A stretch of 64,000 nt of DNA from Microbacteriaceae bacterium (GCA_025465035.1 JAODMH010000042.1:149-64148); one strand, 5' to 3'; counted from the first letter of the stretch, positions 1 through 42,728 are shown. Program-made: numbers and translations. The notes: generated by a model from the letters alone, not told the origin.

Positions 1-3000
1 GTTGTTGGCAAAGGGCGACAGAGTGAGGTTTTGAATGATGGAGCTACCGTTCCACATGTTCACGCCGACGTAACCCGAGGCGTACAGGCTGTTGTGCGTG
101 CTGATCACCGGGGTCGTACCGCCGTTGAGATACACGTTGATCGCGTCGCCAACTGCTGTTACTCGCAAGTGATAGGTCGAGTTCACTGAGATCGGTTCAC
201 TCGCGGTCAGAGTCGTCATTCCTGGACCCCACAGGCTGACGCGTTGCTGGGTGTAGTCGATGTTCGCCGCGTAGAACTGAGTAGCGGCCGAGTTTGCTCG
301 AAAAATGAGCGACGCCGCACCCGCGGTAGTTACCTTGACGTCCGCTTCCAACGACAGGTCCGCGGCCTGTTGGCTATTGAGTCGGAAGCTGTCGCCCGTT
401 GACGTCCCCTGCAAGCCAGACGAGACGTCTGCCCAGGTTCCCGAGATCGTTGTCCAGGCCCCGGTGAGGTTGTTCGCGAATGTGGACACGGGGACCACGA
501 AGTTATCGAGGTTGATATGCCCCCACCCGCCACCGGAGGAGTCAACTGCCTTCAGGTAGACAGTGGAGCCGATCCAGTCTCGGGCATCGAGGATGACCGT
601 CGAGTACGCTTCGGTGTCCTTGCCTGTGGCGCTCATCAGCACCGCGTCGTCTGACGCCCGGCGGAGCTGAAGCGCCTCGTTGGCGATGTCGCTACCTGCA
701 CCGATCATGAAGCTGATCTTCCCATCGCCCCCGAGCAGGAAATTCGGTGTTCGCATGGAACCCTGCGGGGTGTCGCCGCCCGTCCCGGCGAAGCCGAAGT
801 AGTGATAGCTGCCGTGTTGTCCGAACGCGACTCCGTTCTGGGCTGTCTGGGTGGTCACATGCGCGTTATCGAAACCAGATCCCGTGGACGTCCACCCGGC
901 GAGGTTGCCCGACTCGAAGTCCGCGTTGGCGATGTTGGTCGTTGCTCCGGGCGCCGGTGGAATTGGATACCCGGCCCCCGTCGCGATCGTGGACACCTCG
1001 TAGCGGTATTCGTTCCATGCACCGGATGCCGACGTAGGCGTGATGGTGATCTGAACCGAGGACTTTCCTGCGGTGTAGCTCGAGGGAATCGCGAAGTCGC
1101 TCTCTTTCCACGCGCTTGATGTGTTCCCGCCGACTACCCTCCAGGTTCCTACGATTGATCCGTCAACCTTGACCTGCGCCTCCTGGATCGGCACGGATTG
1201 ATCGAATCGTCGCCGGAGCACTATCCCATCGTTTGCGGAGCCGATCGCTGCTGTGAATTGCGAATGACCCGTGATGGCTCGGCCGTCGTCGGAGACGTAC
1301 GCGTCGCTGTAGTCGCCCTCGAAGGCGTTCGTCTCGGTCACCGGCAGAGAACCTCCGACGGTTGTGTAGCCGTGAGCTGACTCCGAGGTGGAGTTGCCTA
1401 CGTCGATGAGGTCCGTTCGGACTGATCGTGGCGTCGGCTTGAAGTAGTAGTACACAAGCGTGCTGAGGGCGGCCATGGGCGTTTCGTCGACAAAACCGTG
1501 TTCCTGACTGATCCGAATGTGATTCTTGAAGTCGATCTTGTCTTCCAGGAACAGTCGGTGCCATGCCATCTGGATCGTCCAGTTGGTGGAGTCGATTTGA
1601 GTGGATTGCAATGACGACATTCCGTGAGTCGGCAGCGAAATGAATCCGTTCTGCCAACCGAATCCGGCGTTCGCTTGGTCTTCGATGCCCGTGCCGTAGT
1701 ACGCCGGGGTGCGATTCCCGTCTGTATAGATCCTCTCGTCGCCCTCGACCCAACCGAAGTAGAAGCCGTTGTGCGGCAATACCGGTGCGTAACCGGGTAC
1801 GGGAGGAAAGTACTCGTTCTGGGACAGCGGACTCGGCACGCCCTTTGCGGACATGACGACGCCGACGACCGCACCCGCACCGTCGCGATCGAGGAGCGTT
1901 GCATCGTGATTGTTCGAAGCATCGACCGATTGCGAACGGTACTCCGTCGTGAAGTAGCCCACGTTGTCGAACGACCCGGGTTGCGATTTCGTCGCAATGG
2001 AATACGTGATCCCGTTGACGGCAGATGGTCCGGTTTCAGACAGCGTTATCTTCGCATGGCTCTGAAACGGCATGGGGAAGTACATATAGAGGTTCTCGGA
2101 TGAATCCATACCCACCATGAGCGTGAGCGGAGCGTTCGAATAGCCGTATTGCCCGATTGCGAAGAAGCTGCCCAGCGGGCTATCGACCGCCGGCGTGGTC
2201 GACCCATCCCAATACATCTTGATCGTGAGTGAGTTCAGGAGTGCCGCGATCGCCGGATCGTCCTGGTAGTAGAAGGTCTGCGTACCGCTGAATGTCTGTC
2301 CGACGATCGAATAACTGTGGGCAGTTTCAGAGGATGAAGTGCCGACATCCACCGAGTCGGTGAGAACCTGGGCGCCGCCGACCGTCGAGTCGACCCAGTA
2401 GTAGAACTCGTTCCAGTCGATGTCCGAGCTGATGAATTTGATCTGCACGGAAATGTGGGACTTTCCGTTGGTCAGTGCCGACGGAATCGTGAACGTACTG
2501 TCACCCCACTTCGTATAGTTGGCGGTTCCGGCTGAGCCCGGATCGAACCACGTTCCAGCGTCGGAGCCGTCCACCCACACCTCCGCCTTCTGATTGGCCA
2601 CACCGTCGTCGTGCCGTCGAGTCAGCGACACCGACGTGTTCGACGAATTGATGGCGACCACAAATGACGACTGGCCGGTTGCTCCATTGAACGCCCGCCC
2701 GTTGTCGGTGAGCGATGTCGTGCGCGAACTGATGCCAGGCACGTGCAGCTTCACGGATGAGACCGAGGCCGGTCCGTTCACGTCGAGCAGCGTCGTCGAC
2801 CCCCCTGCGGGAACGTTCGCAGTTCCGCTGGTGGTCGAGTTGCCCGTAACGCTTTTCGGGTCGGTGCCTACGTTGTTCCAGAGCGCGCGGACCGCCGAGC
2901 TGTCCTGACTTCCCGACTCGGAACTCGTCCAGGTGGAAACCACGGTATCCGAGGTGAACTGCTCGTAGTTGACTTGCAAGTACTCGTTCATGTTGCTGTG

Positions 3001-3501
3001 TTTTTGCAGAGCAACCGTGACCGAGCCGGCGAACAGCATCGGAAGGTATGAAACATATCCCCCGCTCGAAACCGCGGAGTTCATCACGAGCGGGGCTCGG
3101 AACGGCGCGTTTGTGCCCGAGAAGAAATCAGTCGCCGCCATGTCGATGCGAGGCGTCGTTTCCCCGTCGAAATATATATGGATTCGATCCGTAGATTGAA
3201 GGTTCGTGGCCCAGATGCGAGTTATTTCCCCCGGCCCCGCCAGGTCCGCATAAATACGATCGGTCGTCGTCTCGTATTCGAAGCCGGAGTAGTCGTCGTA
3301 TCCACCATTCCGCTGGAAGGTGCTCTGCATGCCGGTCTGCGTCTGAGCATCGAGAACGGGGAGCTGGTCGAGAGCGCTCATCGACGCCAATGCGTGCGGT
3401 GCCGTGCTCGCAGCTTGCGCGGGAGCGCTTGCGCCCAGCACGGACGACACGATGGCGATCAGGGCCAGCGCCGCAACGCGTGGACTTTTCTTGGTAAACA
3501 T
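1..3501 (-). CDS. Secreted multi-domain GH172 (DUF2961) glycoside hydrolase with fructan-enzyme-type accessory beta-sandwich modules; runs off the window edge (at least 1167 aa)
   Basis: Hand translation from ATG 3501 (GGAGAAACC SD) is open to base 1. It shows a signal peptide MFTKKSPRVAALALIAIVSSVLGASAPAQA; DUF2961 motifs ADLAGPGEITRIW, IKMYWDGSTTPAVDSPLGSFF, YFPMPF, WVEGDE, YGTGIED and QEHG; then an NADFESGNLAGW...GGWGHINLDNF module and an LEADVKV..AASLIFR module. Absent from the ORF track because no stop falls in the window. Confidence 0.85.
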   Translation of the reverse strand, partial: MFTKKSPRVAALALIAIVSSVLGASAPAQAASTAPHALASMSALDQLPVLDAQTQTGMQSTFQRNGGYDDYSGFEYETTTDRIYADLAGPGEITRIWATNLQSTDRIHIYFDGETTPRIDMAATDFFSGTNAPFRAPLVMNSAVSSGGYVSYLPMLFAGSVTVALQKHSNMNEYLQVNYEQFTSDTVVSTWTSSESGSQDSSAVRALWNNVGTDPKSVTGNSTTSGTANVPAGGSTTLLDVNGPASVSSVKLHVPGISSRTTSLTDNGRAFNGATGQSSFVVAINSSNTSVSLTRRHDDGVANQKAEVWVDGSDAGTWFDPGSAGTANYTKWGDSTFTIPSALTNGKSHISVQIKFISSDIDWNEFYYWVDSTVGGAQVLTDSVDVGTSSSETAHSYSIVGQTFSGTQTFYYQDDPAIAALLNSLTIKMYWDGSTTPAVDSPLGSFFAIGQYGYSNAPLTLMVGMDSSENLYMYFPMPFQSHAKITLSETGPSAVNGITYSIATKSQPGSFDNVGYFTTEYRSQSVDASNNHDATLLDRDGAGAVVGVVMSAKGVPSPLSQNEYFPPVPGYAPVLPHNGFYFGWVEGDERIYTDGNRTPAYYGTGIEDQANAGFGWQNGFISLPTHGMSSLQSTQIDSTNWTIQMAWHRLFLEDKIDFKNHIRISQEHGFVDETPMAALSTLVYYYFKPTPRSVRTDLIDVGNSTSESAHGYTTVGGSLPVTETNAFEGDYSDAYVSDDGRAITGHSQFTAAIGSANDGIVLRRRFDQSVPIQEAQVKVDGSIVGTWRVVGGNTSSAWKESDFAIPSSYTAGKSSVQITITPTSASGAWNEYRYEVSTIATGAGYPIPPAPGATTNIANADFESGNLAGWTSTGSGFDNAHVTTQTAQNGVAFGQHGSYHYFGFAGTGGDTPQGSMRTPNFLLGGDGKISFMIGAGSDIANEALQLRRASDDAVLMSATGKDTEAYSTVILDARDWIGSTVYLKAVDSSGGGWGHINLDNFVVPVSTFANNLTGAWTTISGTWADVSSGLQGTSTGDSFRLNSQQAADLSLEADVKVTTAGAASLIFRANSAATQFYAANIDYTQQRVSLWGPGMTTLTASEPISVNSTYHLRVTAVGDAINVYLNGGTTPVISTHNSLYASGYVGVNMWNGSSIIQNLTLSPFANN

Positions 3502-3568
3502 GGTTTCTCCATCGAAACGTTCACTCAACAATGCTGGCAATCAGGTCCCGAATCCATGTTCTGTATGA

Positions 3569-3583
3569 TCGAAACGTTTGCGC
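3569..3583. promoter_or_regulatory. LacI-family operator TCGAAACGTTTGCGC (copy 1), upstream of the secreted GH172; a weaker variant ATCGAAACGTTCACT lies at 3511-3525
   Basis: Identical 15-mer at 7230 and, reverse-complemented, at 8485; AAACGTTT core typical of LacI-family sites. Confidence 0.8.
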
Positions 3584-3677
3584 GAAATCATCCTATTGAT
3601 TAGTCCAGCTGGCCACAAGACGCAGTTGCTGGACGGTCGGCCCTGCGACGTCGCTCGGCAGAATCATCCTGACCGGA

Positions 3678-4607
3678 CTATCTGGTTGTCGCGCCGGGTC
3701 TCGACGACGGGACGGCAATCTCGCCAGAGTAGGGCGGAGAAGCGCCATCTCGACCCACAGTGATCGCGGCCGATTCGAGCGCGGTTGCGACGATAGATTC
3801 AGCTGCATCCAGCGAAAGAGTTCGTCCCACGACCGCTTCCCGATTGTGACCGGCCAGACATCCGAACAGCAATCCAGACATGAACGCGTCCCCGGCACCG
3901 ATAGTGTCCGCTATGTCGACTGTGGGCGGCACCAGCTCGAACGAGTGCGTCGGCGTGCGCACTATGCACGCTTGCCCTCCGCGAGTGATGACGAACAGTG
4001 ACACCCCGCGCTCGATGTATTCATCGGCGATCTGCGCATGGCTGCGAGCGGGGTAAAGCCAGGCGGCATCCTCATCGCTCATCTTCAGGACATCGCACAC
4101 CCCAGCCAGCCGCTCTACGCGTTCGACGACCGCGGCCCGACCGCCGATGACGCCTGATCGGATGTTCGGGTCGAAGGAGACGAGCGTGGCGGGATCGGCA
4201 GCCTCGAGCAGTTCGAGCACGCGCCGCGAACCAGGCTCGAGAAGGGCCCCGATCGACCCCGTGTGCAGCACATTGACGGATGCGGGAATGGCCAGCTGCG
4301 GTGACCAACGGATGTCAAAACTGTAGTGAGCCGAACCCGCTTCGTCGATGGTCGCGGTTGCAGTTGACGTGGCGACATCCGCAACGGAGCCGCGCGCGAC
4401 GTTCACGTGCGACTCGGCGAGGTGGCGCGCGACCACACCGCCCAGTCGGTCGGTGCCGAACTGGGTGAAGAGGGTGGTTTCGACCCCGAGGCGCGCAAGT
4501 CCGACCGCAACGTTCATGGGACTTCCGCCGGGGACTTCCCGCACGACACCGTCGGCACCTATTATCCGGTCGACAAGGGACTCGCCGATGACGGCCGCAG
4601 TACTCAT
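3678..4607 (-). CDS. PfkB-family carbohydrate kinase, probable fructokinase
   Basis: IGESLVD, PGGSPMNVAVGLARLG, SFDPNIR, DTIGAGDAF motifs; ATG overlaps the GH32 stop (ATGA). Confidence 0.9.
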   Translation of the reverse strand: MSTAAVIGESLVDRIIGADGVVREVPGGSPMNVAVGLARLGVETTLFTQFGTDRLGGVVARHLAESHVNVARGSVADVATSTATATIDEAGSAHYSFDIRWSPQLAIPASVNVLHTGSIGALLEPGSRRVLELLEAADPATLVSFDPNIRSGVIGGRAAVVERVERLAGVCDVLKMSDEDAAWLYPARSHAQIADEYIERGVSLFVITRGGQACIVRTPTHSFELVPPTVDIADTIGAGDAFMSGLLFGCLAGHNREAVVGRTLSLDAAESIVATALESAAITVGRDGASPPYSGEIAVPSSRPGATTR

Positions 4608-5845
4608 CGTATTAGTTGCCACAGCTGGACCGCCCCGGTCGCAACGAGCTCCACCCAGTCGCTCGACGGGCTGACGGGCATCGCGAACACGCCCGACCCC
4701 GTCGAAATCTCCAGGGCGGGCCCATCCACGATCACCCGCACGGGTCCACCGGAGAAAGGCATTGACCACGAGTCGTCGCCCCGTTGAATCAGGAGCACGT
4801 CACCATCGTGCGTGATGGTTGCGAGGGCCGTAGGGCCGGAGCTGACGGTGAAACGATTGCCGACATTCGGGTTCCAGATGCTGTCGGCAGCGAGGCCGCC
4901 GACCCTTGACGAGTTGACATCTCGACGATAGTTTTCGAGCCCGGCGTGCGGTGAGGCCACGAGCGTGTCTCCCACAAGCGAGAGAGTGTGAGGGACGCTG
5001 TGCGCGCTGGCCCAGCCGGCGTCACGATCCTCGACGTGGCGGAGCCAGAAGGTGAGCGACGGCTTGCCATCAGCATCGCGAAAGAACGAAGGAGCGTAAT
5101 AGCTCGGCCCGTAGCTGAGACGGCCCCACGTCGTCGGAGTGAAGGTGCCGTCGACGTAGTCGCCCACGGCGTAGATCACGTAGTGCAGAACATCCGCGTC
5201 CCACACGGAGGTGACCATCACGTGCCGTCCATCCAATTCAAAGAGCTGAGGGCATTCCCACAGTGCTCCTGTCCAGACCGGCTCCGTCTCAACCGTGGAC
5301 CGCTGCACCGCGATTCCGTCGTATGCCCATTCGGCGAGGTCGCCCGACGAATAGGAGAGGGCCGTCGCGGTGCCGTCGGCGAGGCCCGCGCCGACGAACA
5401 TGCGCCAGGTGTGCCCATCACGGAAGACGAAGGGGTCGCGGTACGCGATGATGTCGAGAGACGATGGCGCTGTCGCTACCACCGCATCCTTGCTCCACGT
5501 GAGCCACGAATCGTCGTCTGGGTGCGCCCGCCGGACTCGACCGACGCCGATGTCGGGCTGCACCACCGAGGTGTAGAAGATGGTGGATTCGCCTGCGTCA
5601 TCAGTGACCAGGGACCCGGTCCAAATTCCATCGTCTCCGTCACCGGGTGCTATTGCAATCGGCTTCGCTGTCCACTCGAACAGGTCCGACCCGATTGCAT
5701 GACCCCAATGGCAATTCGGAGCCCAGACCAGGCTGTCCGGAACGTACTGATAGAACAGGTGATAGTTGCCCTTGTGGAACGTGATGCCATGAGGGTCGTT
5801 GATCCACCCGCGCTGTGCCGTGAAGTGGAACTGCGGCCGCGTCAC
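4604..5845 (-). CDS. Glycoside hydrolase family 32 (beta-fructofuranosidase), cytoplasmic
   Basis: WINDPHG, YRDPFV and WECPQLF catalytic motifs; GTG start overlaps the upstream stop (GTGA). Confidence 0.92.
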   Translation of the reverse strand: MTRPQFHFTAQRGWINDPHGITFHKGNYHLFYQYVPDSLVWAPNCHWGHAIGSDLFEWTAKPIAIAPGDGDDGIWTGSLVTDDAGESTIFYTSVVQPDIGVGRVRRAHPDDDSWLTWSKDAVVATAPSSLDIIAYRDPFVFRDGHTWRMFVGAGLADGTATALSYSSGDLAEWAYDGIAVQRSTVETEPVWTGALWECPQLFELDGRHVMVTSVWDADVLHYVIYAVGDYVDGTFTPTTWGRLSYGPSYYAPSFFRDADGKPSLTFWLRHVEDRDAGWASAHSVPHTLSLVGDTLVASPHAGLENYRRDVNSSRVGGLAADSIWNPNVGNRFTVSSGPTALATITHDGDVLLIQRGDDSWSMPFSGGPVRVIVDGPALEISTGSGVFAMPVSPSSDWVELVATGAVQLWQLIR

Positions 5846-7200
5846 GCCCCAGCCTCCGCATCGAAGCGGGCGCGGATGTCGCGGGCCTGGGTCACGTTGC
5901 CAGACTCCCACTCGTCGATCTCGCCCCGACGCTGCTTCCTCATCGCGTCGCGAGCCTCGATGAAGCGCTCCATCCGCTCGGCAGCGCGGGCTCGGGCGGC
6001 CGTCTGCTCATCACTGAGCTCGGGGAGAGGCGCCTCGACCACGCGATCGATCGGGCGCAGGGGCAGTCGCTGTTCCACGGGCGCGATGGTCAGCGTCGGA
6101 GAGGGCAGGGTCTGATACCAGTACGCCGTCGAGGACCAGTCGTCAGAGAGATGGTTGCCATGGCCATGTTCGAACGTGACCTTGATGCGCTTGGAGAAAC
6201 GGATCGGGTCCGCCATGTGGAAACGATAGCTGTGGTGGAAACCGGGCACATTCTCCTCGTGCACCATGGTGCCGTTGAAAAGGTACGCGTTGTTCTGCAT
6301 GCCCCATGCATGGCCGAAATAGTCTTCCATGCCGGTGCCATGGAGGCTCGGTGGCCACGTGTCGTCATCGATGAAGATCATGTCGTCGCCTTCGCCCCAC
6401 CATGACCCCTGGAAGTGACGCACCGCGAGGTTGCAACCCACGTAGTGCCCGCGTCCCTCGGTCTCGAGGACCACGTAGTTGTCCTCGCCGGTCAGGTTCG
6501 GGATGGTCGTCTCGATGCTGTTCGCCTGAAGGTCGGGACCCCAGCCTTGATTGGGCAGGGCCCGGCGCCAGTGGGCGTGGAAGTATACGGTCTCTTCCGG
6601 CAGGGGCTCGTGAACGAGTTCGTAGTCGATGTAGAAGTACTGGAGATAGGGGATGTCGTTCTGGTTCTCGACCACGATGCGGGCGCGCGAGTTGAACGGC
6701 ATCCTGAAATAGCTGTTGAATGCGGCGCTGCCGCCGAAAGTGTTCAGCTCGGGCTCCTTGGCGGACACCGAGAGCGGCAGTGAGTCGTATGAGCCCGAGA
6801 GCGAATTCATCAATCCGAAGAAGTCTCCGAGCGGTGCGATCACGCTCGGCGTCTCCTGATCGTCCCAGTACATCTTCAGGACGATCTTGCGGTAGTAGTC
6901 CGGGTCATGCACCTCCCAGCTCACTCCGAGCGCGTTATGGATCTCCAGCATCGGGACGCCCACGACGGCCGGGTCGATCTGACCAGGGCCAGGCTGAATA
7001 CGGGATGACTGCGTCATCCAGATGTGGGTGATGAAACCCGGACCCTGGATGTCGGCAAGCACCCGCTCTTCGCCTGGCATCACGATCCAGTTGTCCCGGT
7101 TGCGTCCCGTTTGGTCAAAACTCGAGGCCCGAGCAGTGCGGGAATCGCGACTCACGGTGAGGTCGCCGAGGAGGCCGCTCGGTTGATAAGTGTTGTTCAT
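5842..7200 (-). CDS. Cytoplasmic GH172 (DUF2961); probable alpha-D-fructofuranosidase / difructose dianhydride hydrolase (452 aa)
   Basis: ADIQGPGFITHIWMT, MYWDDQETPSVIAPLGDFF, YFRMPF, WWGEGDD, HGTGMEDYF and FEHGHGNHLSDDWSSTAYWYQ motifs, plus a charged C-terminal helix. Confidence 0.88.
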   Translation of the reverse strand: MNNTYQPSGLLGDLTVSRDSRTARASSFDQTGRNRDNWIVMPGEERVLADIQGPGFITHIWMTQSSRIQPGPGQIDPAVVGVPMLEIHNALGVSWEVHDPDYYRKIVLKMYWDDQETPSVIAPLGDFFGLMNSLSGSYDSLPLSVSAKEPELNTFGGSAAFNSYFRMPFNSRARIVVENQNDIPYLQYFYIDYELVHEPLPEETVYFHAHWRRALPNQGWGPDLQANSIETTIPNLTGEDNYVVLETEGRGHYVGCNLAVRHFQGSWWGEGDDMIFIDDDTWPPSLHGTGMEDYFGHAWGMQNNAYLFNGTMVHEENVPGFHHSYRFHMADPIRFSKRIKVTFEHGHGNHLSDDWSSTAYWYQTLPSPTLTIAPVEQRLPLRPIDRVVEAPLPELSDEQTAARARAAERMERFIEARDAMRKQRRGEIDEWESGNVTQARDIRARFDAEAGA

Positions 7201-7229
7201 CGGGGCTCTTCCTTGAGTATCTAGATTCG

Positions 7230-7244
7230 TCGAAACGTTTGCGC
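7230..7244. promoter_or_regulatory. LacI-family operator TCGAAACGTTTGCGC (copy 2) in the divergent GH172/lacI intergenic region
   Basis: Exact repeat of the 3569 and 8485 sites. Confidence 0.8.
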
Positions 7245-7372
7245 AACAGATGCTAACTGGCATAGTTGATCCTGGCAACTTCGTACGGCACAGAAGCCGA
7301 CGCAGTACATTCCAATGGCGCTGCCGTAGGCGGTGCCACGACCACCCGGCGCGACGAGGAATGAGGAGCGAG

Positions 7373-8386
7373 ATGGCAACGATTGTCGAAGTGGCCGCAC
7401 TTGCAGGTGTGTCGACGTCCACGGTCTCGCATGTGCTCAATGAGACGCGTCACGTCGAGCCCGCTACACGACGGCGTGTGCTCGAGGCAATCGAGAAGAC
7501 GTCGTACCGCCAGGACGCGCTCGCGCGGGCAATGCGACGCTCACGGACCGACAGCATCGGACTGGTGATCCCCGATGCCGGCGAGCCGGCGTTCGCCGAG
7601 ATGGTACACGGCGTAGAACATGCGGCGGCAAAACTCGGGCTCACCCTCCTTCTGTCCAACTCGGCGGAGAGTGCGGAACGCGAGTCGAAGGCCGTGCGCG
7701 TGCTGCTCGAGAGACGAGTCGACGGGCTGATCCTCGCTCGATCCGCGAACTCCTCCCGAGACATCGTTGACGACCTGAGGGGAGAGAACGCAGCGGTAGT
7801 TCTTCTGGACCGCATGTCGCCGGACTCGCCCTTCGATCAGGTGGGAACTGAGAACCGTCAGCCCATGCGTTCATTGGTCTCACACCTCGCAAGCGCGGGA
7901 CATCGACGAATGGTCCTGGTGGCGGGCGACATGCGAGTGCCGACGCTTCGTGAGCGAGCGGATGGCTTTGCGATGGGCATCGTCGAAGCCGGCTTGGACA
8001 TCTCAGAACAGACCGTCATCGCGTCTGATCAGACGGACCCGTCGCTCGCCGAAGCAATAACGCGGGCGGTCTCCGACCCTCGACGGCCGACGGCCTTCAT
8101 CGCGTGCAGCACCGTTCTCGCCGTGGCGACACTCGAACGGGTGAAGGCGGCGGGGAAGGCCATCCCGCGCGACTTCGCGTTCGCCACCTTCGACGGATTC
8201 AGTCACTCCGATCTCTTCGAACCGAGCATCACAACCGTGCGCCAGCCGGCCTTCGAGGTCGGTGTGGCCGCGGTGGACCTCCTCAAGGACCGCCTTGCCG
8301 GGTCCACCTCTCTCCCTCGAACCGTTCACCTCGCGCAAACCATCGAATACCGTGACAGCACTGGTCGCTTTGAACTCGCTCGGTGA
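7373..8386 (+). CDS. LacI-family transcriptional regulator
   Basis: MATIVEVAALAGVSTSTVSHVLN helix-turn-helix and periplasmic-binding-like C-terminus (ITTVRQP). Confidence 0.95.
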   Translation: MATIVEVAALAGVSTSTVSHVLNETRHVEPATRRRVLEAIEKTSYRQDALARAMRRSRTDSIGLVIPDAGEPAFAEMVHGVEHAAAKLGLTLLLSNSAESAERESKAVRVLLERRVDGLILARSANSSRDIVDDLRGENAAVVLLDRMSPDSPFDQVGTENRQPMRSLVSHLASAGHRRMVLVAGDMRVPTLRERADGFAMGIVEAGLDISEQTVIASDQTDPSLAEAITRAVSDPRRPTAFIACSTVLAVATLERVKAAGKAIPRDFAFATFDGFSHSDLFEPSITTVRQPAFEVGVAAVDLLKDRLAGSTSLPRTVHLAQTIEYRDSTGRFELAR

Positions 8387-8484
8387 TTCGGCGACGCGTC
8401 CCGTTCATCCGAACCACTCTTCATCGTTTGGTCGCCCAGCTTGACAAGCCAGAGCAAGCACGTTTACCGTACCTGATGAGAGAC

Positions 8485-8499
8485 GCGCAAACGTTTCGA
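8485..8499. promoter_or_regulatory. LacI-family operator (copy 3, reversed: GCGCAAACGTTTCGA) upstream of the ABC substrate-binding gene
   Basis: Exact reverse complement of the 3569 and 7230 sites. Confidence 0.8.
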
Positions 8500-8551
8500 T
8501 GAAACCGGACCACGGCGGCAAGAACGACCCGCCCCCATCAATGGAGATGAA

Positions 8552-9853
8552 ATGCACAGCACGCACCATCTGAGAAGGCTCACGGCGGCAGTCGCAGTCG
8601 TCGCCGCAGTCGCCCTGTCGATCGCGGGATGCTCGACGGCGTCCTCCGGCGGAGCGACAAAGATCAGCCTCTCGATGCAAAACCCGAACGTGAAGACGGC
8701 GGACCCGGCAACGTGGGCGATCGTCCACGCGTTCGAGAAGAAGAATCCGAACATTACCGTCACAGTCACCGGGCAGCCTGTCGCACAGCACCTACAAAAC
8801 CTCTCGGTCGCCGCGCAGAGCCACACGCTCCCTGACATCTTCTGGATCTACAAGGCGACCGCCGAGCAAATGAACAAGTCCGGCTATCTCATGGATCTTG
8901 CGCCGATGCTCAAGGACCTCGGCCTCACCGACAAGATTTCATCCAGCACTCTCGATAACTTCTCCACGGGCAAGGTCACGTATGGGGTCCCCTATCAGGG
9001 ACTCCTTACGGGCATTTGGTACAACGAGAAGATCCTGAGCGACAACGGCCTCACAGTGCCCAAGACCTTCGATGAGTTCCTTCACGTGGCCGTCACCTTG
9101 CACGCCAAGGGAATCACCACGCTCTCGGACGGCGCCAACCAGTCGTCGTTCTCGGTGTGGTCCTTCCTCGTCGACCTGGATCGATACGGCTGGGAGAGCA
9201 AGTATCAGGCGATACTCGCGGGCAAGGCGAGCTATGACAATCCAGATTTCATCCGGTTCTACGACAGCATCGCAAAGCTCCGGGAGGCGGGCGCATTCCC
9301 CTCGAACGTGACCACCCAGACCTACCAGCAAGCGGTGAATGAGTTCACCAGCGGCAAGGCGGCAATGCTCGACGCCGGCATTTGGGCATCGAGCGCCATC
9401 CAGGATTCCACCGTCGCCCCCGATGCCGGTTTCTGGGCCGGACCAACCTTCTCTGACGGAGTGGGCAAGCAAGACATCGTCATGAATGTCGCCTCGGCCC
9501 CATTCGCGGTGAGCGCGGACGTCAAGAAGGACAGCGCGAAGAGTGCTGCGGTAAAGAAGTTCATCGCGTTCTACTACAGCGATGCGGCTCAGCAGTTGCT
9601 GGTGGACAACGGTCAGCCGCCCGTGACGAACTACACGCCCAAGCTCGACGCCACCAAGCAGAGCGTGCTCAAGGGCGCGCTTGAGGCATCGACCGCGCCG
9701 GGCCTTACAAGCCCGCAGACGCAGCCCGACCTTGTGGTGTCGACCGCCGTTGCGAGCGCCATGTATGACAGCATCTATGGCGTGATCGAGGGGCAGCTCA
9801 CCTCGAAGCAAGCCGTGGACCTGGTCCAGAAAGCGATCGACGCAGGCAAGTAA
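8552..9853 (+). CDS. Sugar ABC transporter substrate-binding lipoprotein
   Basis: Lipobox SIAGC; PDIFW, GVPY, IWYNEKIL and PKTFDEF motifs of CUT1 binding proteins. Confidence 0.9.
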   Translation: MHSTHHLRRLTAAVAVVAAVALSIAGCSTASSGGATKISLSMQNPNVKTADPATWAIVHAFEKKNPNITVTVTGQPVAQHLQNLSVAAQSHTLPDIFWIYKATAEQMNKSGYLMDLAPMLKDLGLTDKISSSTLDNFSTGKVTYGVPYQGLLTGIWYNEKILSDNGLTVPKTFDEFLHVAVTLHAKGITTLSDGANQSSFSVWSFLVDLDRYGWESKYQAILAGKASYDNPDFIRFYDSIAKLREAGAFPSNVTTQTYQQAVNEFTSGKAAMLDAGIWASSAIQDSTVAPDAGFWAGPTFSDGVGKQDIVMNVASAPFAVSADVKKDSAKSAAVKKFIAFYYSDAAQQLLVDNGQPPVTNYTPKLDATKQSVLKGALEASTAPGLTSPQTQPDLVVSTAVASAMYDSIYGVIEGQLTSKQAVDLVQKAIDAGK

Positions 9854-9867
9854 CGTCGTAGCGATAC

Positions 9868-9899
9868 TGATCCGCCGGGCGTTTTCGCCCGGCGGATCA
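9868..9899 (+). terminator. Perfect 14-bp stem with a TTTT loop between the binding-protein and permease genes (attenuating or stabilising hairpin)
   Basis: TGATCCGCCGGGCG-TTTT-CGCCCGGCGGATCA. Confidence 0.7.
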
Positions 9900-9932
9900 T
9901 CCATGACCGAAACATACTGAACGGAGGATGGC

Positions 9933-10802
9933 ATGGTCTGGCTCAGCTCACGCTGGAAGATCGCCATCATGGCCGCACCGGCTCTGATCGTCTTCACAGC
10001 GCTGATCGTGTATCCGGTGATCTACTCCGCCGGCTACAGCCTCACTGACTTCGCCGGCTTCGGCGATCCGGCATTCGTCGGATTGAAGAACTACATCGAC
10101 CTGGGCAACGACCCGTTCTTTTGGTCCTCATTGAGGAACACGATCATTATTCTCGTAGTGAGCCTGGTGATCCTGGTGCCGGGATCGTTCGGCCTTGCGC
10201 TGTTACTTCGTCGACGTTTCCCCGGCGGAGGGGCACTGCGCGCCCTCGTCTTCGCACCGGTCATCATCGCGCCGATCCTGGTTGGACTTATCTGGGTGTT
10301 CATCCTCGACCCCAAGATCGGGCTCCTCGACCGGCTATTCGGTGCGCTCGGGTTGCCCCAGCCCGAGTGGATCGGCGGCAACGTACTGACCCCATACTCG
10401 GTAGCACTCGTTTTCGTCTGGGGCAGCGTGGGTTTCGCCATGACGATCTTCTATGCGGGGCTCCAGCAGCTGCCCACGGACATCCTCGAAGCGAGCTCGC
10501 TTGACGGCGCGAGCGGCTGGAAGCAACTCCTCTACATCACAGTGCCGCTCATGAAAGAGAGCTTCGCGATCGCGACAGTACTTCTCATCACCAACGTGTT
10601 CAAGATCTTCGAGCTCGTCTTCGTTCTCACCAATGGGGGACCGGTACATCGTTCGGAGACGCTCGTCAGCTACATGTACTTCATTACGTTCAACAACCAG
10701 CAATACGGGTCTGGAATGGCGCTTGCCGTCATCATCACCGTCCTGGGGGCGGTTGTATCGCTCGGCTATTTATTGCTCCTGAGAGGCAGGAAATCAGCGT
10801 GA
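9933..10802 (+). CDS. Carbohydrate ABC transporter permease
   Basis: Hydrophobic segments; EAA loop LEASSLDGASGWKQLLYITVPL. Confidence 0.92.
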   Translation: MVWLSSRWKIAIMAAPALIVFTALIVYPVIYSAGYSLTDFAGFGDPAFVGLKNYIDLGNDPFFWSSLRNTIIILVVSLVILVPGSFGLALLLRRRFPGGGALRALVFAPVIIAPILVGLIWVFILDPKIGLLDRLFGALGLPQPEWIGGNVLTPYSVALVFVWGSVGFAMTIFYAGLQQLPTDILEASSLDGASGWKQLLYITVPLMKESFAIATVLLITNVFKIFELVFVLTNGGPVHRSETLVSYMYFITFNNQQYGSGMALAVIITVLGAVVSLGYLLLLRGRKSA

Positions 10803-11662
10803 GTGCCCCCACGTCCCCACTCGGTCGCCGGAGTCGGCGCCGAACCGGAGGCATCGTCGCAGCAATCGCGGCTTACCTCATTACCTTCTTGATCCTCCTT
10901 CCGATCCTGTGGATCGTCCTGCTCTCATTCCAGTCGAGCGAGAAGATCCTCTCGAATCCCCTTGACCTGGGTTCACTCAGCTTGCTCAACTACGTGCACA
11001 CCGTCACGTCGCTCCCGCTGGCTCAGATGTACGGGAACACGATTCTCCTCGCCGTCGTATCCGTGACCATCGGCACCGCGATCTCGTTTATGGTGTCCTT
11101 CGCGTTGACTCGCATGATTTTCAGGCGGCGACGCGTACAGTCCGGGCTGCGGTTCTACATTCTCGCCGGGCTAGCCGTTCCGGTGTACATATTGCTGTTT
11201 CCCGTCTATCGACTGGACCTGGCGCTCGGAGTGTTCGGGTCATATGCCGCGCTGATCATCCCCTACGTCGGAGTGTCAATCCCTTTCAACACCCTCCTAC
11301 TTACTGGATTCCTGCGCGACCTTCCGACGGAAATCGAGGAGGCCGCGATCATCGACGGCGCCGGACTCACGCGACTCATTTGGAGCGTTGTGCTCCCGGT
11401 GATGAGGCCCGTCATCGCGACGGTACTGATTTTCAATGTCGTGTACGTCTTCAACGAATTTCCCTTCGCCTCGATCCTCATCAACAACCCAGACATGACG
11501 ACAGTCTCGCTCGCCGTCTCTCAGTTTCAGGGGCAATACAGCGTCGACTACGGCGGAATGATGGCCGCGGCCACCCTCGTGCTGTTGCCACAGCTGGTGA
11601 TCTACGCAATCTTCCAGAAGCAGGTGATAGCGGGGATGACGATGGGAGCCGTGAAGGGATAG
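10799..11662 (+). CDS. Carbohydrate ABC transporter permease
   Basis: EAA loop IEEAAIIDGAG; GTGA overlap with the previous gene. Confidence 0.92.
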   Translation: MSAPTSPLGRRSRRRTGGIVAAIAAYLITFLILLPILWIVLLSFQSSEKILSNPLDLGSLSLLNYVHTVTSLPLAQMYGNTILLAVVSVTIGTAISFMVSFALTRMIFRRRRVQSGLRFYILAGLAVPVYILLFPVYRLDLALGVFGSYAALIIPYVGVSIPFNTLLLTGFLRDLPTEIEEAAIIDGAGLTRLIWSVVLPVMRPVIATVLIFNVVYVFNEFPFASILINNPDMTTVSLAVSQFQGQYSVDYGGMMAAATLVLLPQLVIYAIFQKQVIAGMTMGAVKG

Positions 11663-11688
11663 CACCCGTCCGCCTGTCCCATCCTTTC

Positions 11689-11730
11689 TCGCGCTACATT
11701 TTGTACGCATTTCGCGCTGCATTCTGTACG
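11689..11730. repeat. Two-copy degenerate tandem repeat, period 23 (TCGCGCTACATTTTGTACG / TCGCGCTGCATTCTGTACG)
   Basis: 17 of 19 positions identical; intergenic. Confidence 0.55.
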
Positions 11731-11876
11731 ACCCCGCGGTGCCGCGAGCCCGAACGCGGCCGAAGCTCTCCGGCCTGGTCGTGAGTGGCGGCGACCGAAT
11801 AGCATAGTTATCTTGTAGGTTAATTAGCCAGTTGGTATATTGGCACCATGACCGCATTGAACCTCGAGATCCCCCG

Positions 11877-12230
11877 GTGACTACCGCGCAACTGGATGCC
11901 ACGTTTCTGGCGTTGGCGGATCCGACCCGGCGAGCGATTATCGGGCGACTGGCGAAGGGGGATGCGACGGTGAACGAATTGGCGGAACCGTTCGACATGA
12001 CGCTTCCCGCCGTCTCGAAGCACTTGAAGGTCTTGGAACGGTGTGGACTGATATCGCGATCGCGGCGAGCCCAGTTCAGGCCCTGTCATCTCGAAGACGA
12101 CGCTCTGCGCCGAGCGGAGACCTGGATCGAGGACAACCGTCGTCTGTGGGCCGAGCGGTTCGACAAGCTCGATGTGCACCTCCGAGACATTCAGCGTCCA
12201 TCATCACCCGAAAATGGAGCCGACAGATGA
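11877..12230 (+). CDS. ArsR/SmtB-family transcriptional regulator
   Basis: LDATFLALADPTRRAIIGRL and AVSKHLKVLERCGLI; GTG start inferred. Confidence 0.9.
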   Translation: MTTAQLDATFLALADPTRRAIIGRLAKGDATVNELAEPFDMTLPAVSKHLKVLERCGLISRSRRAQFRPCHLEDDALRRAETWIEDNRRLWAERFDKLDVHLRDIQRPSSPENGADR

Positions 12231-16786: not shown

Positions 16787-17824
16787 GTGAGCGCCATCGA
16801 CCTGTTGAGCGGGCCGCGGGGGCGGCGACTCTGCCTGCGGATCGCCACGTCCAGCAGCGCCCAGGCATGGACCGCCATGCGCTACGCGGCGGAGAATCCC
16901 TCGAATACCGCCTTCGTGGACGGGCTGATCAAGACCCTTGACGACCTGGATCTGACCTGGGTCGCTACGACGACCGACGAGCGCGCCCTGCTCGGCCCAC
17001 TCTCCGAATCCGTCAATGCCGCGAGGTACTGGCAACCCCCGGACGAGGAGGATGACCTCCTGACACATCCCGCGATCGTCGACGCTCTGAGGCCCATCGC
17101 CGATGCCGTGGCCACAGCTCCGACCGGCGTGTGGTGGTCGAGCCCTATCGCACTGGCCGAACAGCGGCATGCGGAGTGGCTCGACGACGGACGGAAGACG
17201 CCACCATCGCTGGGCGGAGCTGCGTCAAAACTCGCCGACTGGAAAGCCGCGACACTCCTCAACGAACGGAGATCTCCCTCCCCTCGGCGAAAGGTGTCCG
17301 CACCGCTTAGCGGCCAATGGTGGTCGACGCCCGCCCTGTCACGACTGCCGACCACGACACGTGGCCTGCCCGACCTTGGCGCAGTGCAGCTCATGCTGGT
17401 CGAAGATGGTTTCGGCTGGGAGGACGCCCGCGTCACGCCCCTCGCGGCAAGACCCGGATGCCGCATCTATGAGATCACCGGCCCCGAAGCGTGGGTGGAG
17501 CTGGTCGGCCGCTATCCGCTGGACGTGAGCCGGTCGAAGCGACACGACTGGTGGCGCACAACCGGCCGTGACGGAACCTGGGAGGTCCCGGACTGGCAGG
17601 CCGTCGCCGCCGACTTCGACGGAGTGCATCTCACTGTCTCCGGCTACCTCTGCACGGCAGGTCGTGCGCTGCCCGTCGAGGGAGCCCACACGCTGCTCGC
17701 GGGTTGGGATCCCGACCTGACCTACTGGCTCACCGATGCTCTCTCGAATGGCGGACGCGCGGTGGATTGGCGCCGCGATGACTCCGTCTGGGCGATGCAC
17801 GTGTCTACCTCAGATACGAGTTGA
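16787..17824 (+). CDS. Hypothetical protein, Trp-rich (345 aa)
   Basis: Long ORF with natural composition and motif-like PDWQAVAADFDGVHL...AGWDPDLTYWL; no family recognised. Confidence 0.75.
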   Translation: MSAIDLLSGPRGRRLCLRIATSSSAQAWTAMRYAAENPSNTAFVDGLIKTLDDLDLTWVATTTDERALLGPLSESVNAARYWQPPDEEDDLLTHPAIVDALRPIADAVATAPTGVWWSSPIALAEQRHAEWLDDGRKTPPSLGGAASKLADWKAATLLNERRSPSPRRKVSAPLSGQWWSTPALSRLPTTTRGLPDLGAVQLMLVEDGFGWEDARVTPLAARPGCRIYEITGPEAWVELVGRYPLDVSRSKRHDWWRTTGRDGTWEVPDWQAVAADFDGVHLTVSGYLCTAGRALPVEGAHTLLAGWDPDLTYWLTDALSNGGRAVDWRRDDSVWAMHVSTSDTS

Positions 17825-18938: not shown

Positions 18939-19922
18939 CTAATCGGCCGCGATCGGTACGGGGTGTCCAGAAGCGAGCGACTCCCGTGCGGCGAGCGACA
19001 CGGCCAGCGCGAGTATCGCCGAGTCGGTCGGGCAGAATTCGGGATCGCTGCCATTGCGCACACAGTCGAGGAAGTACTCGGCCTGGCGGGCGTATGGGTT
19101 GCCTGTATCAACCAGGCGGTTCTCGTTTCGGTCGGCCGTGACCAGCCGGATGGTGTCGTTGGCGGCTGGCGCCGCGGCTCCGGGCGCACCAGCATAGTGA
19201 TGATCGGCAAGACCGCGACTGCCGAGAAGCTCAAGCGATGAGGCGAAAGAGAAGCCGTCCGGCATCCCCATGAACCCGACCGCCTGCCCCGCCCCGCCGC
19301 CCTCGTAGTCGACGGAGACCTCCATCGGCCCGTCCGGGCGAAGGCGTCTCGCGGACGCCGACCGGGGCCGACCGAGGAACAGGTTCAGTTGATCGAAGTC
19401 GTGGATGCTGAAATCGACGAGCACACCACCAGATTTCGACTCATCGTGCCACCAGCTCGACGGGCCGGGGACAGCGCTGACCCGCTGGGCTCGCGCGCTC
19501 AGAACGGTTCCGACCGCGCCCACCTGCTCGCGAAGAGCGCGGTAGCCGCCGAAGAACCGGACGACGTGGGCCACCATCAGCATCCCGGCGCTCTGCGAAG
19601 CGACATCGCGGATGGCCACCGCATCCCGTATTGTCAGCGCGATCGGCTTCTCGAGCAGCACGTTCTTTCCGGCCATGAGTGATCGTATGCCGATATCGGC
19701 ATGCGTCGGGGTGGGAGTGCAGACCGAGACGATGTCGACATCCGGATCCCGTAGGACGACATCGAGATCGGTCACGAACCGCGCGACCGGTGCGTGCTCG
19801 AGCGGCGACCCTGGCGTCGGAGCGCAGACATATCTGATCGCGCTTCCCAGCCCGATCTCGGTCCAGGCCCGGGCGTGGGCGCGCGCCATGCCGCCCTGCC
19901 CGATGATCGCGATGCTCGACAT
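18939..19922 (-). CDS. Gfo/Idh/MocA-family NAD(P)-dependent oxidoreductase
   Basis: IAIIGQGGMA, VCTPTPTH, VLLEKP and DFSIHDFD motifs. Confidence 0.92.
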   Translation of the reverse strand: MSSIAIIGQGGMARAHARAWTEIGLGSAIRYVCAPTPGSPLEHAPVARFVTDLDVVLRDPDVDIVSVCTPTPTHADIGIRSLMAGKNVLLEKPIALTIRDAVAIRDVASQSAGMLMVAHVVRFFGGYRALREQVGAVGTVLSARAQRVSAVPGPSSWWHDESKSGGVLVDFSIHDFDQLNLFLGRPRSASARRLRPDGPMEVSVDYEGGGAGQAVGFMGMPDGFSFASSLELLGSRGLADHHYAGAPGAAAPAANDTIRLVTADRNENRLVDTGNPYARQAEYFLDCVRNGSDPEFCPTDSAILALAVSLAARESLASGHPVPIAAD

Positions 19923-19925
19923 GCT

Positions 19926-21824: not shown

Positions 21825-22840
21825 CCGGCCACCGGTCCTTCCGCGGTCGATGAAGGCCGCAACTCCGAGACACCCCGCTGAAGGCGGGAGAACAGCTCGC
21901 TGTCGATAACCACGCCCGCTCGCCGCAGGCCAAGAATGGCCGCGCCCACCACGCCGTCCGGAACCGCGATCAACTCCACGCCACCCGCTGCCGCCGTCAG
22001 CGGCGCCGCGAAGATCGAGGGGGCGACTCGCATTCCGGCGGCGAGCACGCTTCCGCCCAACACGACAGGTCCATTCATGCCAGGGTCCCGTGTGGCAGCA
22101 AGGAGCTGGGCGAGCGACCCGGCCGCCGAGGTCAGAATTTCGCGGGCGACCTCATCCTCCGAGGCGGCGAACGCCAACGGTGCGAATCGGGCGAGGCCGA
22201 TCGGCCGCAGCGCGTAGGTCTCCTCCATCAGCGTGACCAGCGAATGAGGGCGTCCCCGCACGCTGCCGAGTTCCGTCCCGATGTGCAGGGAATCGAGCAC
22301 CAGCCCGGTCAGCGCCGTGTCGGGGCCGAGACCGTCGAGCGACGCGACCACGGCGCGCATGACCTGGTGCCCGATCCAGTACCCCGATCCCCCGTCGCCC
22401 AGCAGCCAGCCGGTGCCTCCGCGCGCGAGCGCCAACCGGCCACCGGTGATGCGCCCGGCGACCGTGCCGGTTCCTGCGATCAGGGCGTAGCCGTCGCTCT
22501 CGAAGGTTCCGGAGAAGTAGGTGCCAAGAAGATCTGGCTCGATGACGGGTTCGCCGCCGAAACCGAGGGCGGCGAATCGCTCCGACAGTCGCTCGATGAG
22601 CAGCGGTGACACGCTGCCAGCCAGGGCGATGATGGCCGCGGATTCGTGATTGGTCGTGGACTCGTCCCCGGCCACGGCGCGTTCGGCGGCCTTGCCGAGT
22701 TCCGTGACCGCGCCATCGACTCCGGATGCCGTTGGATTGCCGCTTCCGGCGCGACCGTAGCCGAAGCATCGTCCGGCCAGATCGAGGACGACGGCTCGCG
22801 TGGACGTGCCTCCGGCGTCAATTGCGAGAATCTTGCGCAT
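21821..22840 (-). CDS. BadF/BadG/BcrA/BcrD-type sugar kinase (N-acetylglucosamine kinase-like)
   Basis: IDAGGTSTRA, IAGTGT, GGTGWLLGDGGSGYWIG, LGGSV. Confidence 0.9.
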   Translation of the reverse strand: MRKILAIDAGGTSTRAVVLDLAGRCFGYGRAGSGNPTASGVDGAVTELGKAAERAVAGDESTTNHESAAIIALAGSVSPLLIERLSERFAALGFGGEPVIEPDLLGTYFSGTFESDGYALIAGTGTVAGRITGGRLALARGGTGWLLGDGGSGYWIGHQVMRAVVASLDGLGPDTALTGLVLDSLHIGTELGSVRGRPHSLVTLMEETYALRPIGLARFAPLAFAASEDEVAREILTSAAGSLAQLLAATRDPGMNGPVVLGGSVLAAGMRVAPSIFAAPLTAAAGGVELIAVPDGVVGAAILGLRRAGVVIDSELFSRLQRGVSELRPSSTAEGPVAG

Positions 22841-22932
22841 TGTGATCTTTTCGAAATCTTATGAGCTCAGGCACACTGTACTGTAAGAATAATTTTCGCA
22901 GCACTTCGATGAAGGAGAAATGGATTCTCATC

Positions 22933-23892: not shown

Positions 23893-23900
23893 GAGCCGAA

Positions 23901-24674: not shown

Positions 24675-24770
24675 CAGCTCAGTACGACACATACGGAACA
24701 CGAAACAAAAGAAAAGTGGAACCAGATCGAGTAGCACAGCCCGTCAACCACGAATGGAAGGCAGTACACA

Positions 24771-29574: not shown

Positions 29575-29607
29575 CCGCACTTCACAACCCGGGCGGCACT
29601 ATTCCGC

Positions 29608-29670
29608 TCGCGAAAGTCGCCATGTGGCCCTCGTCAGCTGCACGCAAGGGCAATTTGGCGACTTTCGAGA
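29608..29670. repeat. 15-bp inverted repeat between convergent nuclease and lgt genes (REP-like or bidirectional terminator)
   Basis: TCGCGAAAGTCGCCA ... TGGCGACTTTCGAGA, 14 of 15 paired. Confidence 0.6.
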
Positions 29671-29671
29671 C

Positions 29672-30607: not shown

Positions 30608-30642
30608 CGAATATCGTCCTTACGTTGTATTACCGACCGTAC

Positions 30643-30897: not shown

Positions 30898-30901
30898 CAG
30901 A

Positions 30902-42709: not shown

Positions 42710-42728
42710 TATTCGTGCTCCTCTTTTT

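Follow-up and report, generated by a model that had tools for sequence, protein, structure and literature searches.

Our analysis revealed a gene for a large, predicted secreted protein of glycoside hydrolase family 172 (GH172) at the edge of a 64-kb stretch of DNA from a Microbacteriaceae bacterium (GCA_025465035.1, JAODMH010000042.1:149-64148; 64,000 nucleotides, referred to below as the window). The protein, here called the large GH172, couples a GH172 catalytic region to a C-terminal cassette of carbohydrate-binding modules (CBMs) of the type carried by GH32 fructan enzymes, and its gene shares an operator-like 15-mer with neighbouring genes that include an orthologue of alphaFFase1, the founding enzyme of GH172, which acts on difructose anhydride (DFA) I. 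The gene very probably belongs to a fructan/DFA utilisation regulon. As to activity, we give about even chances to a retaining alpha-D-fructofuranosidase or transferase, extracellular and tethered to fructan, that would feed the DFA I/inulobiose pathway.

Architecture of the large GH172

The gene and its parts are as follows (window coordinates; a minus sign in brackets denotes the minus strand).

1..3501 (-): large secreted GH172 gene; 1167 codons inside the window, full length about 1317 aa, C-terminus past the edge
3412..3501 (-): predicted Sec signal peptide, aa 1-30, predicted cleavage AQA/AS; read by eye from the sequence, kept in orthologues
2692..3405 (-): first GH172-type jelly roll, aa ~33-270; Pfam GH172_1st on orthologues, homologous to the N-terminal part of alphaFFase1
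2203..2661 (-): X1, inserted beta-sandwich, aa ~281-433; paralogue of X2, conserved across the clade
1444..2235 (-): GH172 catalytic region (DUF2961), aa 423-686; profile and PDB-sequence matches
1762..1836 (-): insertion of about 23 aa right before the acid/base Glu, aa ~556-580; in the CBM66-bearing subclade only
1744..1746 (-): E586, predicted acid/base, in WVEGDE (aa 584-589, nt 1735-1752); aligns with alphaFFase1 E270
1678..1683 (-): E607 (predicted nucleophile) and D608 in GTGIED (aa 603-608, nt 1678-1695); align with E291 and D292
952..1413 (-): X2, CBM6/CBM35-like jelly roll, aa 697-850; AlphaFold and Foldseek
493..951 (-): mid module, aa 851-1003, NADFESG...GGWGHINLDNF; CBM-like jelly roll, mostly on GH32 enzymes
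13..492 (-): CBM66 repeat 1, aa 1004-1163; phmmer against the CBM66 of Bacillus subtilis SacC (BsCBM66)
1..12 (-): CBM66 repeat 2, FANN start only; continues past the window (P0107 and orthologues)

The order is thus signal peptide, GH172-type jelly roll, X1, catalytic region, X2, mid module and two CBM66s. The modules named in the original prediction were all recovered, but its domain map was incomplete, since it had missed the N-terminal jelly roll and the paralogous X1 and X2.

The catalytic region scored 189.5 bits against the DUF2961 profile (PF11175; cut-off 27), with aa 423-686 on profile positions 2-234, and matched the PDB sequences 4kq7, 8ah3, 7v1v and 8ic8; precomputed Pfam labels on orthologues were GH172_1st, GH172_dom and GH172_2nd. 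GH172/DUF2961 proteins are double jelly rolls that form capsomer-like trimers with active sites between protomers (PMC8812541, PMC8605356). The N-terminal jelly roll of the large GH172 aligns with DUF2961 profile positions 1-87 and shares 35% identity over 63 aa with the start of the catalytic region. Direct pairwise comparison of X1 and X2 gave 41% identity in a core of 95 aa (E 1e-18), a duplication that default self-BLAST missed. The AlphaFold model of X2 has a predicted local distance difference test score (pLDDT) of 94.9, based on a 59-sequence alignment, and Foldseek placed it with CBM35 and CBM6 structures in the PDB (TM 0.5-0.7, about 12-20% identity).

The catalytic residues of alphaFFase1 are E270 (acid/base) and E291 (nucleophile), with D292, W267, W298 and Y187′ in subsite -1 and E85′ and K147′ in subsite +1 (PMC8605356). 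In a HMMER alignment E586, E607 and D608 of the large GH172 fall on E270, E291 and D292 with the identical 21-residue spacing, and all three are invariant among 59 members of the large clade. Both glutamate motifs claimed at the outset were found, with true coordinates a few bases from those given. The rest of the alphaFFase1 pocket differs: W267 is replaced by Gly and W298 by Phe, the E85 loop is absent, and K147 and Y187 cannot be aligned. Since the pocket residues other than the catalytic three are not kept, the protein is a GH172 with intact catalytic residues, and orthology to alphaFFase1 was ruled out. By membership of GH172 it is predicted to be a retaining alpha-D-furanosidase, acting on alpha-D-fructofuranosides (alpha-D-Fruf) or alpha-D-arabinofuranosides (alpha-D-Araf).

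C-terminal modules of fructan-enzyme type

The beta-sandwich module, initially described as CBM66-like, proved to be a genuine CBM66. In a phmmer search of PDB sequences it matched the SacC module (4azz/4b1l/4b1m) with E 3.4e-28 and 101 bits, aa 1007-1162 of the query aligning with residues 4-163 of the 172-residue crystallised module; its Pfam matches, to 3keto-disac_hyd and Laminin_G_3, were weak. FANN occurs at nt 469-480 and again at nt 1-12.

The mid module (NADFESG at nt 907-927, GGWGHINLDNF at nt 499-531) has no model in the Pfam copy used. A word-indexed protein search gave just 2 matches, and HMMER was instead run exhaustively over 1.84 billion representative proteins; it returned 1855 proteins at E <= 1e-3, of which 453 reached E <= 1e-10, and many have 2-10 copies in tandem. 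The protein clusters concerned are named only 'GH32 C-terminal domain-containing protein'. The module is thus a large family, chiefly borne by GH32 enzymes: 27 of the 35 best-scoring proteins contain GH32 N and C domains, and 21 of the 35 also carry a Laminin_G_3-type module. Its AlphaFold model (pLDDT 80.6) is a CBM-type jelly roll whose closest structural neighbours in the PDB are a porphyran-binding CBM (8xmz, E 6.5e-7), the gingipain cleaved-adhesin domain and hyaluronan- and galactan-binding modules. A candidate identity for the family is CBM38, the inulin-binding repeats of a GH32 cycloinulo-oligosaccharide fructanotransferase.

The combination recurs in P0140, one of the proteins from the HMMER search, a secreted GH32 of 1175 aa with the canonical WMNDPNG, RDP and EC motifs followed by two mid modules and two CBM66s, which are 43% (mid) and 48-50% (CBM66) identical to those of the large GH172. 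The mid/CBM66/CBM66 cassette therefore also rides on a classical beta-fructofuranosidase. Both C-terminal modules of the original prediction thus matched CBM66- or GH32-associated families, and the fructan-enzyme type assigned to the NADFESG module agrees with its carriers and with P0140. From these homologies we infer that the cassette would bind the non-reducing fructosyl ends of beta-fructans.

Reading frame, extent and export

The protein of at least 1167 aa initially described corresponds to a minus-strand frame open from an ATG at 3501 to base 1 (1167 codons; reverse-complement translation of window 1-3600), and a GGAG lies 5 nt 5′ of the ATG. Relative to two 97%-identical orthologues we counted about 138 synonymous and 37-38 non-synonymous differences, a dN/dS (non-synonymous to synonymous rate ratio) of about 0.08; a pseudogene or chance open reading frame (ORF) was ruled out by this value together with the 189-bit domain match. 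A further repeat had been postulated beyond the window edge, and leftward extension bore this out. On the 64173-bp source contig the protein call is P0107 (1216 aa), which matches the window ORF without a difference over 1167 aa and runs 49 aa past the edge (LPANWTDLSGSWSEV...) into the start of a second CBM66. The 97%-identity orthologues P0001 (on L001) and that on L003, from a Joint Genome Institute (JGI) metagenome, have 1317 aa and end after this second CBM66, so the repeat is real and nothing follows it. Cell-wall anchoring was considered and ruled out, as the orthologue C-terminus reads ...QGLTVS with no LPXTG motif.

The JGI call for the orthologue starts 10 codons earlier (1327 aa; L003 10001-10030, corresponding to window 3502-3531) at a non-ATG codon, which falls within a degenerate operator copy. 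The start used in the NCBI call (1317 aa), an ATG behind a GGAG ribosome-binding site, is the likelier of the two. The N-terminus MFTKKSPRVAALALIAIVSSVLGASAPAQA/AS, read by eye and not by a prediction tool, has a Lys/Arg n-region, a hydrophobic core and an AQA cleavage motif, with neither a lipobox Cys nor a twin-arginine motif. In keeping with the secretion initially proposed, the large GH172 is predicted to be exported via Sec.

The large GH172 sequence is almost confined to soil metagenomes. The gene called on the source contig has no recorded product name. Automatic names of orthologues conflict, P0010 being called D-arabinan exo-alpha-arabinofuranosidase by JGI and fragments of another sacC; an NCBIfam search of the large protein gave no match.

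A shared operator-like 15-mer and the neighbouring genes

The genes and sites next to the large GH172 gene are listed here.

3678..4607 (-): PfkB-family sugar kinase, putative fructokinase; directly upstream of the large GH172 gene, same strand
4604..5845 (-): cytoplasmic GH32 beta-fructofuranosidase, 413 aa; resembles Thermotoga maritima invertase, E 1e-38
5842..7200 (-): small GH172, 452 aa, full-length orthologue of alphaFFase1 (DFA I synthase/hydrolase)
7373..8386 (+): LacI-family regulator, 337 aa; divergent from the small GH172 gene
8552..11662 (+): sugar ATP-binding cassette (ABC) importer; solute-binding protein 8552-9853, permeases 9933-10802 and 10799-11662
3569..3583 (-): operator-like 15-mer GCGCAAACGTTTCGA, 68 bp upstream of the large GH172 ATG, 6 nt after a TAGGAT -10-like hexamer
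3512..3526 (-): degenerate copy of the 15-mer with 3 mismatches, by the ribosome-binding site; alone not significant
7230..7244 (-): 15-mer in the divergent region between lacI and the small GH172 gene, just downstream of a sigma-70-like promoter (7278-7250)
8485..8499 (+): 15-mer 53 bp upstream of the ABC solute-binding-protein gene

The small GH172 aligns end to end with alphaFFase1 (E 3.7e-157) and retains E85, K147, Y187, W267, E270, E291, D292 and W298, that is, all published residues of subsites -1 and +1. The locus has the same layout as the DFA I cluster of Bifidobacterium dentium, with the fructokinase and the secreted enzyme in addition.

Perfect copies of GCGCAAACGTTTCGA occur exactly three times in the window, all of them intergenic, and every other site has at least 3 mismatches; the chance expectation for a given 15-mer is about 1e-4 per 128 kb of two-strand sequence. 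The 15-mer contains the palindromic core AAACGTTT, typical of LacI-family sites, and a TANNNT -10-like hexamer lies just 5′ of each copy. The promoter at 7278-7250 was also found in a consensus scan. For the large GH172 gene we propose by eye a promoter TTGTGG-17-TAGGAT; the consensus scan of the interval from pfkB to this gene gave no sigma-70 promoter and no terminator. The 15-mer is conserved in L003, at all three sites, and in L008. A perfect copy and a variant precede a 51%-identical orthologue in a Schumannella metagenome-assembled genome (MAG), where the ORFs upstream of the orthologue gave no Pfam match. Because the 15-mer is common to three promoters, there is good evidence that the large GH172 gene is in one regulon with the importer and the DFA I/inulobiose/fructose genes, with the LacI-family protein as the putative repressor.

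Relatives of the large GH172

A pattern scan of 185,579 species genomes found the large core encoded at 71 loci, in Verrucomicrobiota, Planctomycetota, Chloroflexota, Bacteroidota, Myxococcota, Actinomycetota and Bacillota. The mid module together with one or two CBM66s is confined to a subclade with 49-58% identity to the window protein, whose members include Microbacteriaceae, Schumannella, Pseudolysinimonas, Dactylosporangium and Bacillota MAGs. Fructose-related neighbours recur in this subclade. A small alphaFFase1-like GH172 (50% identity) is accompanied by ABC, LacI and PfkB genes in L004; L005/L017 have an alphaFFase1-like gene (54%), LacI, ABC and a GH32-remnant fusion; PfkB, ABC, LacI and alphaFFase1-like (52%) genes in L077 are divergent from the large gene; and in L078 ABC permeases lie upstream and a GH32 gene directly downstream, overlapping the stop codon. 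Altogether 5 other CBM66-bearing relatives have a fructose gene context or the 15-mer and 1 has neither. In the wider large clade there is no fructan gene nearby, and neighbour clustering of 68 of its loci gave no widely conserved partner, so the fructan context is a property of the subclade and not of the clade. The active site follows the same division: all nine CBM66-subclade members compared have the insertion of about 23 residues, and NAGFGWN replaces the clade-wide NGGWYF after the nucleophile.

In a group of Verrucomicrobia and Limnocylindrales loci, large GH172 genes without CBM66 sit next to genes for a GH116, a FucI-like isomerase, a ribose-type ABC system and an FGE-sulfatase-domain protein (for example L055 6017-9739 and 10001-12322; also L009-L012, L014 and L038). 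The best PDB match of this GH116 is the exo-beta-D-arabinofuranosidase ExoMA2 (8ic6, E 2.8e-95, versus about 1e-32 for beta-glucosidases). These loci resemble the D-arabinan loci known from characterised GH172 exo-alpha-D-arabinofuranosidases (PMC10509167), and they look like uncharacterised loci for D-arabinofuranoside utilisation in non-actinobacterial soil phyla. The ancestral large clade was probably directed at D-arabinofuranosides, and the CBM66 subclade looks as if it had been recruited into fructan metabolism with a reshaped pocket.

Beside the alphaFFase1-like genes of L004 (5934-7973), L077 (1158-3899) and L005 (5937-8804), a conserved, uncharacterised glycosidase of six-hairpin (alpha/alpha)6 type stands in the GH32 position. 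The three copies are 41-44% identical to one another and have no PDB sequence match, with weak Pfam matches to GH65C, MGH1-like and rhamnosidase six-hairpin families; in L005 the copy forms one protein with DUF4980 and with remnants of GH32 N/C. We regard this glycosidase as a candidate for a new hydrolase of the inulobiose/DFA pathway.

Proposed function and alternatives

The proposed pathway would run as follows. A LacI-family repressor would hold the three promoters through GCGCAAACGTTTCGA until a fructose-disaccharide-type inducer releases it. The enzyme would then be exported by Sec, as its signal peptide suggests, and by homology to BsCBM66 and GH32 modules its C-terminal cassette would tether it to non-reducing fructosyl ends, e.g. 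of levan or inulin. There, by a retaining GH172 mechanism in which E607 serves as nucleophile and E586 as acid/base, it would hydrolyse or transglycosylate alpha-D-fructofuranosidic bonds of fructan-derived material, for instance oligomers or units of the difructose-anhydride type. The products would be taken up by the co-regulated ABC importer, as judged from homology, and passed to the alphaFFase1 orthologue (most probably interconverting DFA I and inulobiose), to the GH32 enzyme, which would release fructose, and to the PfkB kinase, which would yield fructose-6-phosphate.

Several points weigh against this proposal. Its chief weakness is that we know of no natural extracellular polymeric alpha-D-fructofuranoside. 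The +1 subsite residues of alphaFFase1 are those of the neighbouring protomer and cannot be aligned in the large protein. The Dactylosporangium orthologue lacks fructan neighbours, and the CBM66-less members of the large clade adjoin the ExoMA2-like GH116 instead of fructan genes. The GH116 of the Verrucomicrobia-type loci contains, as an insert, a distant mid-module copy (28-31% identity), so the module family is not restricted to GH32 enzymes or fructanases. Three metatranscriptomes of the same soil study had no contig matching window 1-12000, which is uninformative.

One alternative is that the protein is an exo-alpha-D-arabinofuranosidase like ExoMA1 and DgGH172a-c, acting on D-arabinan-type glycans such as soil Corynebacteriales walls, with C-terminal modules that recognise D-arabinofuranosyl and not fructosyl termini. 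Such a change of ligand would suit the ring configuration common to beta-D-Fruf and beta-D-Araf, which is established chemistry, and every polymer-active GH172 characterised is an exo-alpha-D-arabinofuranosidase. The wider clade, moreover, co-occurs with the ExoMA2-like GH116 (which has the mid module too), the FucI-like isomerase and ribose-type ABC genes, and the JGI name of P0010 points the same way. This gene association was, however, seen only in CBM66-less clade members. Pfam searches of 30 of the 50 likely-gene ORFs in the window found no D-arabinan-locus partner, namely no GH183, GH116 or D-arabinose catabolic gene, and tblastn searches using window queries, together with precomputed Pfam labels, showed none in L003, L004, L005, L077 and L078. 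The 15-mer ties the gene to the alphaFFase1 orthologue, the GH32 and the fructokinase; four further subclade loci have a fructose-type context; the cassette is 43-50% identical to one borne by a GH32 enzyme and matches the CBM66 of SacC at E 3.4e-28; and the surround of the active site in the subclade is unlike that of the putative arabinan clade. We regard an arabinan-directed enzyme as unlikely.

A new fructotransferase would keep the substrate a fructan. Docked at a non-reducing inulin or levan end, it would free DFA I, or some other alpha-linked anhydro-fructobiose, straight from the beta-fructan, using its carboxylates in a single-displacement intramolecular transfer. It would be a functional analogue of GH91 inulin fructotransferase, and its product would serve the cytoplasmic alphaFFase1 orthologue as substrate. 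This would jointly explain the exo-type end-binding cassette, the co-regulation with the importer and the DFA I hydrolase, and the 23-aa insertion by the acid/base Glu; none of the 30 window ORFs scanned is a GH91, and alphaFFase1 itself forms DFA I by intramolecular attack with E270 as base. Against this, GH172 is a retaining family acting on alpha-linkages with its nucleophile on the beta face, and cleavage of beta-(2,1) or beta-(2,6) bonds would demand an unprecedented swap of catalytic roles. The idea is purely inferential, and we hold it unlikely to quite unlikely. Another role altogether, be it on a different furanoside, on small soluble alpha-fructosides with the CBMs serving for retention in the matrix, or as a lectin-like protein, would accord with the low identity to all characterised GH172 (best PDB E 1e-18), the lack of a conserved +1 subsite and the capacity of CBM families to switch ligand. 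The clade-wide invariance of E586, E607 and D608, the strong purifying selection and a fusion to fructan-type modules that is kept across Actinomycetota and Bacillota all argue against it, which leaves it quite improbable. We also see a slim chance that the subclade represents unrecognised extracellular fructan processing that uses the GH172 double jelly roll, by either a fructotransferase releasing DFA I-type products from inulin or levan ends or a hydrolase of an undescribed alpha-D-fructofuranoside polymer. If true, either activity would be a natural source of alpha-fructofuranosides for alphaFFase1 orthologues, whose substrates are now seen as caramel or GH91 products.

Other features of the window

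A second sugar locus at 18939-28071 encodes a GFO/IDH/MocA oxidoreductase, DUF5107, a BadF-type kinase, an RpiR/SIS regulator, an ABC solute-binding protein and two permeases, and has no link to the fructan locus. A flagellar cluster at 31737-56420 (FlhA, FlhB, FliM/N, hook/rod protein, FliI ATPase, FliF, FliD, FlgK) means that this soil Microbacteriaceae is probably motile. Three plus-strand ORFs with high GC content at third codon positions, 29297-31804 (835 aa), 42715-43998 (427 aa) and 16787-17824 (345 aa), gave no Pfam match at E <= 1e-5.

Significance and comparison with known systems

GH172, CBM66, the DFA I gene cluster and fusions of DUF2961 to CBM-type modules (2022 survey) are already known. 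In the GH172 and CBM66 papers searched we found no characterised secreted GH172 with fructan-type CBMs, nor the core with an extra jelly roll and two CBM6/35-like domains, nor the regulon link; in keeping with the claim that the architecture is uncharacterised, no biochemical description of it was found there. The pairing of catalytic module and CBM is one that a specialist in carbohydrate-active enzymes would not expect. GH172 was founded on a cytoplasmic enzyme acting on DFA I, and the known polymer-active members are all D-arabinofuranosidases. Here a secreted GH172 is fused to a fructanase-type cassette, and soil Actinomycetota and Bacillota have kept this fusion. The suggestion is that soil bacteria encounter or make alpha-fructofuranosidic linkages outside the cell, on or near fructans. 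A review by the discoverers of alphaFFase1 states that alpha-D-fructofuranosides are 'not naturally occurring' outside caramel (PMC10941961). With the protein, its orthologue set and the regulon at hand, the natural substrate of the alphaFFase1 pathway becomes testable, and a possible yield is a new enzyme to make or degrade prebiotic difructose anhydrides. Two further units have been defined along the way, the GH32-associated CBM-like family with its 1855 representative proteins and the clade-wide CBM6/35-like insert.

The survey of Krupovic et al. 2022 (PMC8812541) had already noted fusions in about 9% of DUF2961 proteins, the partners being jelly-roll CBMs, LamG, ConA or BACON domains and even GH32; it contains no biochemistry or regulon analysis, and its passages on domain fusions do not describe the large core or the CBM66 subclade. 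With alphaFFase1 (BBDE_2040 of Bifidobacterium dentium, PDB 7V1V, PMC8605356) the window protein shares the family, the catalytic residues and their spacing, as well as the locus logic of ABC importer, GH172 and GH32, and at a distance of 2.3 kb there is a true alphaFFase1 orthologue, its gene behind the same operator-like 15-mer. However, alphaFFase1 is a cytoplasmic, single-module, hexameric enzyme of about 450 aa that acts on disaccharides, whereas the window protein has about 1317 aa, is predicted to be secreted, and adds one more jelly roll, a pair of CBM6/35-like domains and, at the C-terminus, three CBM-type modules; it matches the alphaFFase1 PDB sequence in the catalytic region only (E 7e-12), with W267 and the +1 residues not conserved.

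ExoMA1 of Microbacterium arabinogalactanolyticum (8IC8) and DgGH172a-c of Dysgonomonas gadei (8AH3) are exo-acting on polymers and belong to multi-enzyme loci (PMC10509167, PMC10115798, bioRxiv 10.64898/2026.08.13.744632). Their D-arabinan-type gene context is apparently shared by the wider large-GH172 clade. They are single-module proteins of about 380 aa that occur with GH183 and GH116, whereas the window gene has a fructose context, GH32-type CBMs and the active-site insertion.

On the side of the binding modules, the relevant comparison is the B. subtilis levanase SacC (GH32-CBM66; 4AZZ/4B1L/4B1M), whose CBM66 binds terminal fructosyl residues and gives the enzyme its preference for levan. 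Other GH32-CBM66 enzymes are FruA of Streptococcus mutans and AbFEH of Anaerostipes (PMC12678895), and tandem CBM66s and an extra beta-sandwich module are known on GH32 enzymes too. The catalytic module of SacC is a GH32 beta-fructofuranosidase propeller, whereas that of the window protein is a GH172 (retaining; alpha-D-Fruf/alpha-D-Araf). P0140, itself uncharacterised, has the mid/CBM66/CBM66 cassette on the other catalytic domain (GH32N and GH32C), and the 43-50% identity of the two cassettes argues for cassette shuffling between fructan enzymes.

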